Source of the DNA: Blasia pusilla
Taxonomy: Eukaryota
Length of the DNA stretch: 64,000 nt
Reading direction: 5' to 3'
Assembly: GCA_050084515.1 (NCBI GenBank)
Contig: CM114271.1
Location: forward strand, 47,244,001 to 47,308,000
The translations under genes were made by a program, and so were the position numbers. Numbering within the stretch: position 1 is the stretch's first letter; every line of letters starts with the position of its first letter. The notes beneath the pieces are model-generated. The model worked only from the letters and a program-made list of their open reading frames with translations, did not search any database and was not told where the DNA came from. Shown here piece by piece: positions 12,225-21,220 of the stretch.

Positions 12225-12495
12225 GTCGTGCGAATCCACATCGTCATACAACATACCATACTCACATACATACATACCATAGACGAGAGCATCCACAAAC
12301 ACAAGTGTACCACAACTCGCCTCCCTAACTGGTGGTTAGGTCCCTCTAACTCCCATGTAGCCCTATACATCTACTACATGCTATACACCTTCTTGGGTGC
12401 ACGAATCAGAAGGCCAGGTGCTAGGTTGCCCCATCGTTAGTCGCACATCTGTAATCCATATCATGCAAAGATCAAGTCATCTACCTCTCCTAAGT

Positions 12496-12630
12496 ACATC
12501 GAGAACAAACCCACCTTCCAATAGGAACAATATCCATACGTGGAGTCAAACACATCATGTGCCAACCCCTAGAACACCGATCACACACCAATATACGGGT
12601 TGCGTTACCAACAGACCCACACAACATGCA
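12496..12630 (-). other. PHD finger at the integrase C-terminus
   Basis: C4HC3 pattern CMLC...VCDRCSRGWHMMCLTP...GRWVCSRC, in frame with the integrase C-terminal segment (RFHVGDYVYL). Confidence 0.92.
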
Positions 12631-13800
12631 CCTCAAGCTAGCATGTATCATGGCTAAGCTTGGGTCAACAGTACCATCCACACTTGGAAGATGACATGGC
12701 GCACAATTACGCACATGGTCCTTCCAAACAACTCCATCACGACCCTCCAACATGAGAACTTCATAAGCTAACACCTCGCGCACTCGTAAAATAGTACGGC
12801 CTGCCGTCACATCCAAGGTTGTCGATGCAATCTGCTGCAAATAGACATAGTCCCCCACATGGAATCTACGAATCGATGGTCGATAACCTCCACCCCGAAT
12901 GGTTGCATACCGCAACGTATCCTTGTGTTGAGCAATGGCAAGATTCTCAAAGGCTATTGGCATAACTCTCCGAAAGAGCTCTATCCGCTGAGAACACACT
13001 CTCATCCATATCTCTGGGTCATCAAGGTTCACCACCTCACTAGACTCGACAATTCTTGCGGCAAGTCTGGATCTCGGCCGTATAACAGAAAATAAGGTGA
13101 GAAGGAAGCCAAGGATGCTTGGCGATTGAACCTATACCCCATGGCTAAACATGGCAACTGAATATCCCAGTCTCCAAGATGCCCCTTCTATAGGCCATAC
13201 TTGCGCAATGCCCTCTTCACCGTCTGAACCACACGCTCAGCCAAACCATCCGCCTCTGGATGATCTCGAGACGTGGTCCAATGATCAAGCAACGCCTTGT
13301 CACATAAGACCTGAAACTCGTACCCTGGTCGGTCAGCACTTCAGCTGGTGCACCAAAATGACTAAGCACTCTATCAAGAAATGCATACGCCGTTCCCTCA
13401 CTTGCCTTGTCCAGTAATGCCACCAACTCAATCCACTTGGAGAAGTGCTCCACCATCACCAACACATATCGATGATGTCGCGATCCAATGATAACGGTCC
13501 CGCAAAGTCCACACTCCAACGGTAATCCAACCCCATAATAGGCAAGGTGTGTAATTGTGGTGTAGGGACATTGAATGATGCCCTCACCCGGTCACAAACC
13601 ATACAACGTGACACCAACTTCTGCACCTGAGTATGCATGCCACGCCACCAATACTGGCCAAGGAGTAAGCTATACGTATGCTTTACCCCAAAATTTCCCA
13701 ACTCCTCATGGGCATGTCGCACAATGCGCTCTCTCTGAGCCAAATGCGGCACTACTTGTACTCTACCATCCTCCCACACACGGAGAATATGTGTTCCCTC
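12631..13800 (-). pseudogene. Retrotransposon integrase, frameshifted
   Basis: HHCC-like HAHEELGNFG...CMVC; core WSVDFAGPL, VEHFSKWIE and LTDQG. Confidence 0.9.
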
Positions 13801-14099
13801 CAATCGATATCTCTTAGCACGTTGAAGAACACGGTCTCGCTCCTTGGCACTCACTATGCTTGGCACCCTACTGGTCAGTAGGAACTCCAATACCAACGCA
13901 TCATCATGAATATCACGCTGATCCGTACCACCATTTCCAACCTTAGGATCTGAAGGCTGGCCATCTACCCTCTGACTAGAGTAAGATATCATGTGGTCCT
14001 CCATACTAGAGTCCACCCCTAACCAACATAAAAGGGCGGATGCATGCCAACATGGCACCATCTCCTCATCAACCTCACCATGCCATCTAGCCCCACTTG

Positions 14100-17600: not shown

Positions 17601-18363
17601 ATGCAAGCCTCTCACAATCAATGGCTGGCCGATGCATCCATCTTCGCCACTGCTGCCTGCCAAGTAGCACTGGTACTCAATGCTACACTTTACATAGAGG
17701 GTCGCTCAACCGCAACACCCTCATCCACCTCAGAACGTGTAGCAGTAACACCCCAATGTTCACTTAACGTGGCTGCTAGCTGAAATATAGGAGCTAAGTC
17801 AACTCCTAAAGCCATCAGCTCCGTGGCCGAAAACAATGGGGATCCCAACACTTAAGTTGCCATCCGCAATATTGCACTGGACGCTACATCCGTGTCTACT
17901 ACACGCGATGTAGATGCCTCAGTCCCCACTGTCGGCTCAATAGGCTACGTAGGAACCATGGATGGAGTCCTAAGCACCTCAGACAACAAGAATGACTGGG
18001 GAAGCCTAGCCTGCCTTCCAGCCTCACCCCTCTATGGGTCCAACTCCACAGTAGCACCACGTGGCTTTGACGCTCGAGTGGCTCCTCTCAGAATCGCAGC
18101 GGTGATGCCTCAAGTTGTCTTTGCACTCGCCATATAAGAGAGATCATCCCTCCATAAGAGGTGGAAGCCCCTGCTCCCGAACCTGATCTATGCTAGATAC
18201 CACCATAGTAGCCAACTCTCGCTCCAATTGCTGAATCTGGCGACCATAGTCGACTCTGTCGTAGTGGTAGGGGTAGCCACCTTAGGCTCTCCAACCACCG
18301 GGTCCACCTCTACCAGCCCTACCACCTCGGCCTCTGAGCTACTCCACCACGGATGTCCTGATC

Positions 18364-19661
18364 TCAACTCGGATGAAGATCAAAGCAACGCTCTCGAGGA
18401 TGACCTGGTCTCCCGCAATGATCACACTGAGTTGGGGCCGACTGAGGCCCATCCTCCAAAGTCCATCTCCCATCCTCTTGGGGACAAAACTTCCTAACAT
18501 GATCACCTCCACATGTCCAACATGACTGTCCTTGTTGCGGGGCAGCAAATGAAGGCAATGGTCTCTGCGCAAGTGTCCCTCTAGGACCTGACTGAGGTCG
18601 TGTGTACCCCCCACGACTCCCACTACCACTACCACCACCACTACTACGAGACTGTGAGGTGGGTTGCTGAACATGAGAAGTAGTAGTTGTATCCCTACTG
18701 AATGCGGATGTCACCACTCTCTCCTTCACCATGTTAAGCTCAATCTTCTCAGATAGAGTAAACACATGGGTCAATGTGGGTGAATCATCACTCATAAGAG
18801 TAGCATCATGTACCCTACGGCGCAAGTCTCTCTCCAAGATCCCATACCAAAACTGGACTGCATGAGCTTTAGTCACACCCTGGGTAGCTGAAATCAAGGG
18901 TTGCATACGAGTGTATGCCTCACGAAGACTCTCACCAGTCTTTCGCTCAAATTCTTGAAGACTCCTCAACTTCTCTGTCTTCACTCCCTGATAGTTCTTC
19001 TTCAACCTCTTGAAGAACTCTGCAACCGGGCTGAACGATGGTGGGGCACTAGTACCCCCACTAGTACCTCCATGGGTACCTCCACTAGTACCCCCACACC
19101 GGCTCGTACTCGTACCACTCAACGTCGGGCTGGCTGGCATAGTAGGAGCGCTACTACCAAGACCACCATGGGTGATAGACACATAACCTGGAGACCAATA
19201 TTGTCTCCACGCCTCAATCTCAGCAACATGGTCCTTCCTAAACTCATGGTAATCATCCATGGGTGGTCCTTCCAAGTGGTGAAACAACCCCTTCCAAGCC
19301 AAGAAGGGTGTAAACAACGTGGCGTTCGCAACATCTGCATATCACACCACGTATCAAACTCCTGCATGAAGTCCTCCAACTCAATGGTTCCCACTGCACC
19401 CGAGTATCGTCGTGGGCCCTTCATGGCCCCATATATCCTGTCCATGTCCCAAATCAATGGAGCTGCAACACTCGATAACAACGTAGAAGACTCAGTGTTT
19501 GGAACATCCTCGTCCTCCTCTTCATCAACCGTCGGAAGTGGAAAAGGTAGCCGATACCTAAATCCACTCCGTGTGAAACCACCTGCTTTATCGCACACGG
19601 TCCCCAACCAGACCACCCGACAGTTCCGTGATGACCAACACCGATGCCGCACCACCACCAA
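18364..19661 (-). pseudogene. Gag of the DNMT-Gypsy element
   Basis: Retrotrans-gag-like ERKTGESLREAY; two zinc knuckles CWTCGGDHVRKFC and CDHCGRPGHPRERC; GGTS tetrapeptide repeats; frameshift near 19320. Confidence 0.85.
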
Positions 19662-20853
19662 ATAACCAAGTGACGTCGATGTCGCTATACTATTCTAGCT
19701 CTACTAGCTATGGGTGTAGGCAACCTAACCTGTCATCACCACAAGAAGCCTCCCACAGTCTACTGGTCATCACTCCACCCTCACTATCGGTAGCACACAT
19801 GAGTAACACTACTCTAGAAATCAGCGTCAACCCTAACAATGGGCGCGCAAGCAAGAAGCAACGATGGAGGGGATACAAACATAGGAAGTCCAACGACAAC
19901 CTTCCAATCGCAAATGGAAATCAAGGTAACACAATCCACCAAACGTGGTGCCCCCTGAATCCACAAAACCCACCACACAATTCTAACGCAATAGCTACTC
20001 CGCCGCGGGTCGATGACGTGCTAGTCGAACTCGCAGCACCTGAAAATATCACCTTCATGGAGAGGCTACACCGTACTATGCGCTATAGGTACATCAACCA
20101 AAAACCTGAGATGCATAAAGCGCCTAACACATCTCCAAACAGCACCAAATGAGCTACAACAGTGTGTACACTAGCATAGTTAAGAACTCAGCAGTTAAGC
20201 GTCCTCCAGGCAGAATAGCCCAAAGATGGGTGACCAGTTATGCAACACTCAAATCACAAATCCTGCAAAAATTGCCTCGCGCCCAAGCTTGCTTGCTCCG
20301 CCTCTCACGCCCACTCGCCCCAAGCTACCACAAGTTGCCTCGTGGTAGCTATCTCTCCACAAAAAATCAGCTACAACCGAGCTCTGTACTCCGAGCTAAA
20401 AATCAGACAAACTTGTTGTCCATACACCTCCAGAATCGCAAATCCGACAGCGCTTCCGCCAAGTTTCATGCACGCAGAAATCCGCAACGCTCCACACACT
20501 CGAGCAGATAGCTTCATATGAGATCACCATACAAGTACCAACAGGAACCTCTCACCCGATCTGGATGAGATCTGGATTCAACAGAGCTTCCGCACTCCAA
20601 GCTCTCCACATCATAAAACCGTCGAACACGAACCAGAATCTTCAATCCTTGATAACTTCCAACTCCCTTGACGAAATTCAGCGATCTAAAGCGCGTTGAA
20701 AAGCTCTCAGCAAGGCGCTTCTTTCCCAACCAACCACGCATCAGAATCACACCTCCAACATAGGCCACAAGCCATGAACATCCACGGCTGAGTACACAAT
20801 CAGCCCTAACCAGATCCTACTGGTCCACAATCGATCTACTCCAGTTCTTTGAG

Positions 20854-21220
20854 TGAAATCTTTGAAAGACCTACTGTCATAAAACATGTATAGAATCACA
20901 TACAATTGAGCCAAACCCACTCCACGATGGGAGAATCTAGGTCGAAGCTTGCGGGAAACACCATAGCCAAGAGCTCTACTCACTACCAAGGCTAACTCCC
21001 AACGCAACAGGCTCAACTCAAAGAACTGATTGTTCTTTGAGTGCACTCCATCTTATATCGTCCAACCTAAGAGCGGGCCCTACTGGAAAACTCTCCCTCA
21101 ACTGAGTAACCCCCAACCCTATGTATGAAATCGCATCTCTACCTAAACACTACGGCCCTACATAAGGTATGGCCTCTAGTAGAACACTATATTCTACGAC
21201 ATAATCCGTATGGTCATGAC
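20854..21220 (-). promoter_or_regulatory. Candidate 5' LTR of the DNMT-Gypsy element
   Basis: Starts GTCATGACC; TATAA at 21057-21053; TCAGT initiator-like motif with A at 21027; candidate ends ...ATGACA (20875) or ...TTTCA (20854). No well-matched 3' copy was found. Confidence 0.5.

Follow-up and report, generated by a model that had tools for sequence, protein, structure and literature searches.

A decayed copy of a probable liverwort Ty3/Gypsy-type family with a DNMT3-like cytosine methyltransferase domain and an integrase PHD finger

Introduction

Retrotransposons that bear their hosts' silencing enzyme are known so far from a dinoflagellate and one charophyte alga. A stretch of 64,000 nucleotides from the liverwort Blasia pusilla (contig CM114271.1, positions 47,244,001 to 47,308,000; this whole stretch is referred to as the window) contains at 12225-21219, on the minus strand, a retrotransposon with a C5 cytosine methyltransferase domain between its protease (PR) and its reverse transcriptase (RT). 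This locus raises the questions of whether such a domain belongs to the element or is an accident of a single copy, of which type it is, and what it might do there.

Our analysis makes it likely that 12225-21219 is a decayed copy of a high-copy liverwort family of the Ty3/Gypsy type, the intact members of which have one gag-pol frame with a DNMT3-type domain between protease and RT and a PHD finger ending the integrase (INT). The same kind of element is now seen across liverworts and mosses.

Results

The element and its methyltransferase domain

Stop-to-stop open reading frames (ORFs) and three-frame translation place one Ty3/Gypsy-type element on the minus strand at 12225-21219, consisting of gag, protease, a C5 cytosine methyltransferase domain (DNMT), RT, RNase H (RH), integrase and a C-terminal PHD finger. 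The Ty3/Gypsy domain order, gag followed by pol as PR-RT-RH-INT with a DDE integrase, is present. In tblastn, the element is colinear along its whole length with the Marchantia proteins P0121 and P0128 and the Sphagnum protein P0142, with identities to the Marchantia and Sphagnum proteins of 54–62% for gag, 74–75% for PR, 55–57% for DNMT and 65% for RT-RH.

The methyltransferase domain was recognized by six motifs that follow one another on the minus strand in the canonical order I-IV-VI-VIII-IX-X and align with those of relatives. Motif I, GICVLDLFGGISTGL (VLDLFGGISTG), lies at about 16732-16794 in the minus-strand translation, motif IV, GWPCQGHTRAGRG (GWPCQG), is found in a short ORF at 16353-16547 in another frame, and motifs VI (AYILENVP), VIII (SRAHRPCLWWTNL), IX (ADERERAMGF) and X (VLGQAMDLN) are all contained in an ORF of 305 aa at 15725-16642. 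This 305-aa ORF alone has no Pfam match; the motif IV piece alone exceeds the gathering cut-off of PF00145 (24.5 bits vs. 22, E 2.1e-5). Intact relatives score 35–48 bits against PF00145, with matches that span only part of the profile. A profile made from seven intact relatives covers 16840-15797 at E 3.8e-143 and also has matches of its own in the two other frames.

A preliminary description of this DNA had read C5 methyltransferase motifs in canonical order between protease and RT on the same strand, and had proposed PF00145 as a check; all six motifs were read again here, the profile match covers 15797-16840, and PF00145 is matched above its cut-off by the motif IV piece. The same description held that motif IV was hidden by a frameshift. 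Motif IV is indeed in another frame, but the damage amounts to about seven frame-breaking indels rather than one. As that description stated, neither a BAH or chromo domain nor a DRM-type permutation or an intron is present, and the domain map bears out the idea of a land-plant Gypsy element with its own C5 methyltransferase. The features of the element and its borders, in window coordinates and in the 5' to 3' direction of the element, are:

21220-21392, no strand: perfect microsatellite (CT)86.5, reading (AG)n on the sense strand; adjoins the element 5' end (Tandem Repeats Finder, 100% matches).
20853-21219, minus: terminal repeat A, the element 5' end; the sense strand opens with TCATGACCAT and closes with ...TTTCA; homologous to A1 of the related locus L074.
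19695-20852, minus: leader from repeat A to gag, opening with the block CTCAAAGAAC (sequence read); the same block stands directly after A1 in L074.
18364-19694, minus: gag in two frames, with CCHC knuckle CWTCGGDHVRKFC (ORFs; tblastn with Marchantia P0121, 54–62% identity).
17083-17676, minus: aspartic protease region (tblastn, 74–75% identity to P0121 and P0128).
15797-16840, minus: DNMT3-like C5 cytosine methyltransferase domain, broken (motifs, Pfam, profile of intact relatives).
14524-15591, minus: RT, with YIDD present (PF00078 E 1.4e-22 at 14524-15087; RT-RH 65% identical to Marchantia P0128).
14164-14523, minus: RNase H (ORF colinear with the PF17917 region of P0128).
13217-14163, minus: integrase in two frames, with H2C2 zinc domain (PF17921, E 7.5e-14) and DDE core (PF00665, E 1e-9).
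12490-13131, minus: C-terminal extension of the integrase, with the PHD finger at its end (12496-12630; PF00628, E 2.9e-9).
12317-12326, minus: purine run AGGGAGGCGA, candidate polypurine tract, immediately upstream of repeat B; L074 has this block, too, ahead of its B1.
12225-12316, minus: terminal repeat B, the element 3' end; the sense strand opens with GTTGTGG and closes with TTCGCACGAC; homologous to B1 of L074.
12076-12224, no strand: perfect microsatellite (CT)74.5, adjoining the element 3' end (Tandem Repeats Finder).

Two of these assignments depend on relatives more than on Pfam. The gag match to Retrotrans_gag is weak (E 0.0073, below the cut-off), and the protease ORF of the window has no Pfam match, while the colinear region of P0464 and P0143 matches PF13650. 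The PHD finger at 12496-12630 had not been mentioned in the preliminary description.

As to its type, the domain is closest to DNMT3. A phmmer search with the Calypogeia protein P0122 against the PDB gave DNMT3A as the best match (8e-11), followed by DRM and bacterial enzymes. Against solved enzymes, the sequence profile A1 matched DNMT3A at 9e-20, DNMT3B/3C at about 1e-17, DRM at 1e-10 to 1e-7, HaeIII/HhaI at about 1e-4 and DNMT2 at 3e-4, and no DNMT1 or CMT appeared among its matches at E ≤ 0.01. In a structure search, the Atlas model of P0122 superposes on DNMT3A models with a TM score of 0.73. The catalytic domains closest by sequence and predicted fold are thus those of host DNMT3 (animal DNMT3A/B; plant DNMT3 and DRM), with which the motif order I-IV-VI-VIII-IX-X is common, although DRM is permuted and the element enzyme is not. 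Unlike host DNMT3, which comes with PWWP and ADD, the element enzyme is a catalytic domain alone within a retrotransposon polyprotein: Pfam finds no PWWP, ADD, BAH or chromo domain on the polyproteins (P0121, P0122, P0128, P0162 and P0464 among those scanned). Judged by these likenesses, the methyltransferase domain is best classed as DNMT3-like, and not as bacterial, MET1, CMT or DRM, which agrees with the earlier opinion that it is no captured MET1, CMT or DRM.

One homologue, P0080, is filed as 'DNA cytosine methyltransferase' of a Candidatus Obscuribacterales metagenome-assembled genome (MAG). As it falls in the same 90% cluster as a retrotransposon polyprotein of 1359 aa, it is a misbinned piece, likely of a eukaryotic contig binned with bacteria. 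With DNMT3A/B as the closest solved relatives and the 'bacterial' homologue explained in this way, a bacterial origin of the domain was ruled out.

Relatives and spread in land plants

Homologues of the 305-aa ORF were searched at E ≤ 0.001, with proteins of similar length and longer proteins counted apart. The searches yielded 229 proteins of similar length, many of which carry PF00145, and 49 longer ones. Named homologues come from Marchantia polymorpha (at least 12 gene models, 949–1333 aa), M. paleacea, Riccia, Calypogeia and four Sphagnum species, and the annotations of Marchantia polymorpha, Calypogeia, Riccia and Sphagnum include colinear gag-PR-DNMT(-RT) proteins. In the Marchantia protein P0121, all motifs are part of one open gag-PR-DNMT frame of 1278 aa; the 90% cluster of this protein has 18 members. 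Metagenome contigs contributed 123 further relatives, and 80 loci were retained from these.

When 1.84 billion representatives were searched with a profile, 8706 matched at E ≤ 0.001 and 462 at E ≤ 1e-30; the matches include many polyproteins of 1000–3456 aa. According to Pfam, polyproteins with the domain present two layouts. The first, CCHC-PR-DNMT-RT-RH-INT, is the order of the window and is found in P0328 and P0464 as single frames of 2188 and 2327 aa. The second and more diverse one, RT-RH-DNMT-INT-PHD, is found in P0162, P0319, P0330, P0333 and P0329. When the order was typed in 161 proteins with home-made profiles, RT preceded DNMT in 48 and DNMT preceded RT in 10; a further 27 had DNMT before INT without RT, and 76 had DNMT alone. 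We also calculated a quick, unrooted DNMT tree with 87 of the 161 rows (the 74 omitted had fewer than 260 domain residues or no second domain for typing; four DNMT-only bryophyte rows were retained). It places 12 DNMT-before-RT rows, including Marchantia and Calypogeia, on one side of a single branch (SH-aLRT 99) and 75 rows of the other order on the other side. Among relatives, the six catalytic motifs are retained down to 42% identity.

The DNMT segment is therefore a lineage feature of the element and not a one-off insertion, and its presence in other copies of the RT lineage, on which the preliminary description had made its reading depend, extends to other species. That description also had the methyltransferase expressed within the polyprotein. 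This fits intact relatives, which have single-ORF polyproteins, but not the window copy, which is broken and so cannot express the domain in this way.

In full-text literature searches, no account of land-plant retrotransposons with a DNMT came up, and the Marchantia gene ids were not named in any paper; subscription journals and supplements lay outside the scope of these searches, so that an earlier mention is possible.

Terminal repeats and flanks

Two identical long terminal repeats (LTRs) flanking the internal region, as expected of Ty3/Gypsy, are missing from the window: three repeat searches and self-BLAST found no LTRs or terminal direct repeats there apart from (CT)n. Relatives bear split repeats instead, in the order A1...B1-A2-B2. 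The two related loci with both ends on the contig, L074:5696-14910 and L072:1768-10971, are complete and read TG[A1]-internal-[B1]CA-NN-TG[A2][B2]CA. Both of the two have the A-coding-B-A-B layout, with ends TG or TA...CA, the inner junction CA-NN-TG and 4-bp target duplications (CATA in L074, TCTC in L072). The window keeps A-coding-B only. Its repeat A (20853-21219) aligns to A1 of L074 with a local score of 140 (shuffle maximum 36) and its repeat B (12225-12316) to B1 with a score of 96 (shuffle maximum 25). The 10-nt start word of repeat A is present in 18 of the 80 related loci, and the end word of repeat B in 9 of 80. As a side observation, split direct repeats are combined here with a DDE integrase; a purine run stands just before B and a conserved block just after A.

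In the same organism, reads of other copies connect 12225 with 21219 head to tail, separated by about five other letters (X5 depth 470, several X1 contigs, and 8 and 3 RNA reads), and rare joints link 12315-12318 to 20854-20887. Both kinds of joint are explained by the A1-internal-B1-A2-B2 build of L074 and L072. The window copy would have inserted into a (CT)n microsatellite and later lost NN-A2-B2 through recombination between B repeats. As both flanks are (CT)n, no target duplication can be read in the window.

Two other views of the arrays were rejected. That each (CT)n array lies inside an LTR with its outer half beyond was ruled out, as scores stayed at shuffle level; nothing element-like is found beyond either array. 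That (AG)n is a feature of the family was ruled out as well, as arrays of at least 10 units occur in 2 of 80 related loci, none at an element end. Further perfect (AG)n arrays are present in the window at 55203-55311 and 51665-51696.

Decay of the window copy

With the intact ORF of L011 as reference, the window DNMT carries about seven frame-breaking indels, of lengths not divisible by three; one is 5 nt long and another 2 nt. They fall between about 16800 and 16393, all in the first half of the domain. In tblastn, gag, PR and integrase of the window copy each change frame. Conserved residues have been replaced, too: motif VIII reads HRPCLWW in the window vs. HRPRLWW in relatives, a change of a conserved Arg to Cys, and the protease reads LLDPSA vs. 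LLDSGA in Marchantia P0121.

Compared with other copies in the DNA of the same organism, the window has T/A where these have C/G at 100–110 places, and the reverse at 26–50. Of the C/G to T/A places, 25 were listed, with 6 in CG, 6 in CHG and 13 in CHH context; over the whole element, CG accounts for 15% and CHG for 13% of the C and G positions. The CpG observed/expected ratio is 0.63 in the element vs. 0.76–0.86 in the rest of the window. The excess of T/A and the low CpG fit an old copy under long-term cytosine methylation.

Copies and transcripts in the same organism

For the organism itself, two DNA runs (as contigs) and two RNA runs (as raw reads) were mapped to 12225-21219. All 30 bins have a DNA word depth in the thousands, with no drop over the DNMT relative to the other parts of the element. 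Such an even depth, in the thousands, indicates a high-copy family whose copies carry the DNMT segment. Most mapped DNA pieces are 95–99% alike to the window.

About 2000 RNA reads mapped per run, nearly all with the first mate on the plus strand. If the library is of the usual stranded kind, these are sense transcripts of related copies. In 14 and 25 reads, 990 nt at 12962-13953 are skipped, with 9 other letters between, so that transcribed relatives lack most of the integrase.

Selection on the domain

Omega (dN/dS, NG86) was calculated on natural open ORFs of 12 loci and the window. It is 0.13–0.34 at dS 0.7–3.7 and 0.31–1.06 at dS below 0.25, and 0.15–0.34 for the window vs. others; comparisons with L076 and L042 are partly saturated, with dS undefined or above 1.4. 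For a second set, codons were placed on Marchantia P0128, and of 81 sources 43 offered a sufficient number. In pairs whose DNMT dS is 0.7–1.5, median omega is 0.36 for DNMT, 0.31 for PR and 0.18 for RT-RH; at dS 0.1–0.3, the medians are 0.60, 0.73 and 0.39, respectively. Between P0464 and Marchantia, identity is 41–42% for DNMT, 26–28% for PR, 25% for gag, 21–36% for the linkers, 51% for RT and 56% for RH.

Between diverged lineages, the DNMT is under purifying selection, with omega of about 0.13–0.4, near the level of the protease. Neutral evolution across copies had been named as a finding that would speak against the preliminary description, and purifying selection was found instead. Taken together, the omega and identity patterns indicate that the domain acts as a constrained pol domain on deep branches and decays like all else after insertion.

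Discussion

Possible role of the enzyme and the PHD finger

The solved structures closest to the PHD finger of the element are CHD4, DPF2/3, MLL3, ATXR5, KDM5A/B, PHF21A, AIRE and UHRF1. Most of these fingers read unmodified H3K4 or the N-terminus of H3. That new cDNA or the insertion site might be methylated had already been suggested in the preliminary description. We propose, as a plausible though tentative mechanism and the one we prefer, that the enzyme is made in Gag-Pol and methylates new cDNA in the particle, while the PHD finger tethers the integrase. The enzyme would be made as part of Gag-Pol and travel with RT inside the particle, where it would methylate the new cDNA de novo. The PHD finger would then tether the integrase to chromatin with unmodified histone H3 tails, and new copies would land in silent chromatin, already carrying its mark.

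Near-identical open gag-PR-DNMT frames are found in Marchantia polymorpha. A wider proposition would have a bryophyte-wide Gypsy lineage, active in places, with a working de novo DNMT3 and a histone-reading PHD integrase, which writes 5-methylcytosine on its own cDNA or landing site, chooses unmodified-H3 chromatin and adds to bryophyte methylomes. It would derive from the RT-RH-DNMT-INT-PHD form, the domain having been shifted once to a place before RT, with A-coding-B-A-B on an element with a DDE integrase reflecting a replication route different from that of ordinary LTR elements. In this full form, we consider the proposition doubtful.

Several points weigh against our reading of the element and should be considered when referring to it. 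Where enzyme activity is concerned, the window copy is a dead pseudogene. All six motifs stand in one ORF in only 2 of the 80 metagenome loci, so most of these copies have decayed too. Selection on the DNMT is visible on deep branches only, where dS nears saturation; among close copies its omega is 0.6–0.85, as decay after insertion gives. Overall, DNMT omega is about twice that of RT-RH, part of the excess coming from out-of-frame stretches read through by tblastn. The RNA reads are nearly all 95–99% alike to the window, with only 23 and 29 reads at least 99% alike, so other copies are those transcribed; RNA depth over the DNMT bins (7–33) is lower than in the 3' part (40–90). The (CT)n flanks of the window copy could be an assembly error. 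The reading of the PHD finger is a lead, taken from its likeness to solved fingers and from what those fingers are known to bind, and the mechanism as a whole is inferred.

Alternative explanations

The alternative that survives best is that the enzyme works, but not on its own cDNA. Host DNA might be its target in trans, so that the methylome is reshaped or other copies are protected, RNA might be its substrate, or it might mainly be a brake that lowers transposition to the benefit of both host and element. Passages of de Mendoza et al. 2018 (PMC5890265) raise such options for other DNMT-bearing elements, and report that one LINE-borne DNMT tested in yeast gave no DNA methylation. In addition, the element domain is without the ADD and PWWP readers of host DNMT3, so targeting must come from elsewhere. 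The position in Pol beside RT, and a reader that sits on the integrase rather than on the DNMT, fit action in the particle or pre-integration complex somewhat better. As nothing in the analysis speaks directly against roles other than on cDNA, we regard these as possible, without holding them to be probable.

It is improbable, in our opinion, that the domain is a family feature and yet functionless baggage, acquired once and drifting neutrally since in an element that transposes without needing it. One could argue so from the DNMT being broken in 78 of the 80 metagenome copies and in the window copy, from the omega of 0.6–0.85 among close copies, and from a family that is high-copy in the same organism with no open DNMT shown there. 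However, broken copies and near-neutral recent divergence are typical of dead insertions in any family, and PR behaves alike. Baggage would also not be expected to keep a protease-like omega of 0.13–0.4 between diverged lineages and six catalytic motifs down to 42% identity, or to surpass gag, PR and linkers in conservation when distant intact polyproteins are compared.

Even less credit can be given to the view that the frameshifts and microsatellite flanks are assembly or sequencing errors and that the true copy is unbroken and has ordinary ends. Assemblers have difficulty with perfect (CT)n arrays of 149 and 173 nt, and some X1 contigs do differ from the window by single-base gaps, two of the 12 listed places (12 of 71 indel places) being inside the DNMT, at 16342 and 16424. 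Yet seven indels together with replaced conserved residues in both PR and DNMT exceed what error would yield, the excess of T/A for C/G (100–110 vs. 26–50) is as expected of an old methylated copy, and the two listed DNMT gaps are absent from the RNA reads (carried by 0 of 45 and 0 of 35 in X22).

Finally, a fragment of a host or bacterial gene might have been captured, or inserted as a nested piece, in this copy alone, giving a methyltransferase segment that plays no part for the element. This has a negligible chance of being right: in its favor are the 305-aa ORF that alone has no Pfam match and the homologue P0080 with its bacterial MAG label, and against it are the order gag-PR-DNMT-RT, which recurs in proteins from Marchantia, Calypogeia and Sphagnum as well as in uninterrupted ORFs of 2188–2327 aa, the 123 relatives in metagenome contigs, the DNA word depth in the same organism, which is as high over the segment as over the remainder of the element, and the closeness to DNMT3A/B, not to bacterial enzymes, with P0080 as a misbinned piece.

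Other features of the window

A second Ty3/Gypsy element is present at 46602-50469 on the plus strand, with gag, CCHC, protease, RT and integrase, 29–33% identical to the first. There is no space for a methyltransferase between its RNase H and integrase. At 25857-26507 on the minus strand lies a cytochrome P450 exon (PF00067, E 2.1e-62). Its closest relatives are liverwort CYP823-like proteins, with identities of 73% for Plagiochasma, 69% for Marchantia MpCYP823A1, 67% for Riccia and 66% for Calypogeia, and of 43–44% for the moss Ceratodon. These identities place the host of the window among the liverworts, as a species other than M. polymorpha. An ORF at 972-1802 on the plus strand has a weak match to the hAT dimerisation domain (E 3.3e-4, just short of the cut-off) and is probably a transposase remnant.

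Significance and comparison with known systems

With open gag-PR-DNMT frames in Marchantia polymorpha, the question of the role moves to a transformable model with good methylome resources. A practical consequence concerns annotation: public databases list several pieces of these polyproteins as 'DNA (cytosine-5-)-methyltransferase' of plants or bacteria, or as 'hypothetical protein', which can inflate counts of host DNMT genes in bryophytes.

Among known systems, chromoviruses have an integrase C-terminus fused to a chromodomain, where the window element has a PHD finger instead. EpiLTRs, as far as described in passages of their preprint (bioRxiv 10.64898/2026.05.21.726589), combine reader and DNA methyltransferase domains in one LTR element, as here; the window element differs from that description in its PHD reader and in having no adenine methyltransferase. 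The same passages place the EpiLTR DNMT beside DNMT4 and treat streptophyte Gypsy-DNMT3 as a separate acquisition.

The RT-RH-DNMT-INT-PHD polyproteins (P0162, P0319, P0330, P0333 and P0329) share with the window family its Gypsy-type RT, RH and INT, the PHD finger at the C-terminus and a homologous DNMT, which is 35–37% identical to that of the window. Their DNMT is situated between RNase H and integrase, whereas that of the window family is before RT.

In the dinoflagellate Symbiodinium, SymbioDIRS-Dnmt3 has, by the account in passages of de Mendoza et al. 2018 (PMC5890265), a DNMT3-type domain within Pol and A-coding-B-A-B repeats. SymbioDIRS-Dnmt3 and SymbioLINE-Dnmt are, like the window element, retrotransposons bearing a C5 methyltransferase, but are described there as a DIRS element (with tyrosine recombinase) and a LINE, respectively. 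The window family is unlike these elements in its DDE integrase and, in relatives, its 4-bp target duplications.

The system most alike is KnitGypsy-Dnmt3 of the charophyte Klebsormidium nitens. Passages of the same paper (PMC5890265) describe it as a Gypsy-type element with an intronless, non-rearranged DNMT3-related domain in the Pol frame, with this DNMT under purifying selection, and assign to it and to SymbioDIRS the A-coding-B-A-B repeats, as in DIRS elements; they stress that K. nitens has few copies of the element. No K. nitens protein is among the named homologues (all 49 longer matches and the best 120 of the 229). The hosts and copy numbers differ, as set against those passages: a charophyte with few copies on one side, and on the other a liverwort with a high-copy family and relatives in mosses. 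The window family has its DNMT between PR and RT and a PHD finger on its integrase. Likened by published description, the two have in common an intronless DNMT3-type domain in a Gypsy Pol, purifying selection and A-coding-B-A-B repeats, the latter seen here in L074 and L072. With the DNMT3 type and the unusual repeat layout in common, the liverwort family can thus be considered a further member of the kind represented by KnitGypsy-Dnmt3, rather than a separate invention.

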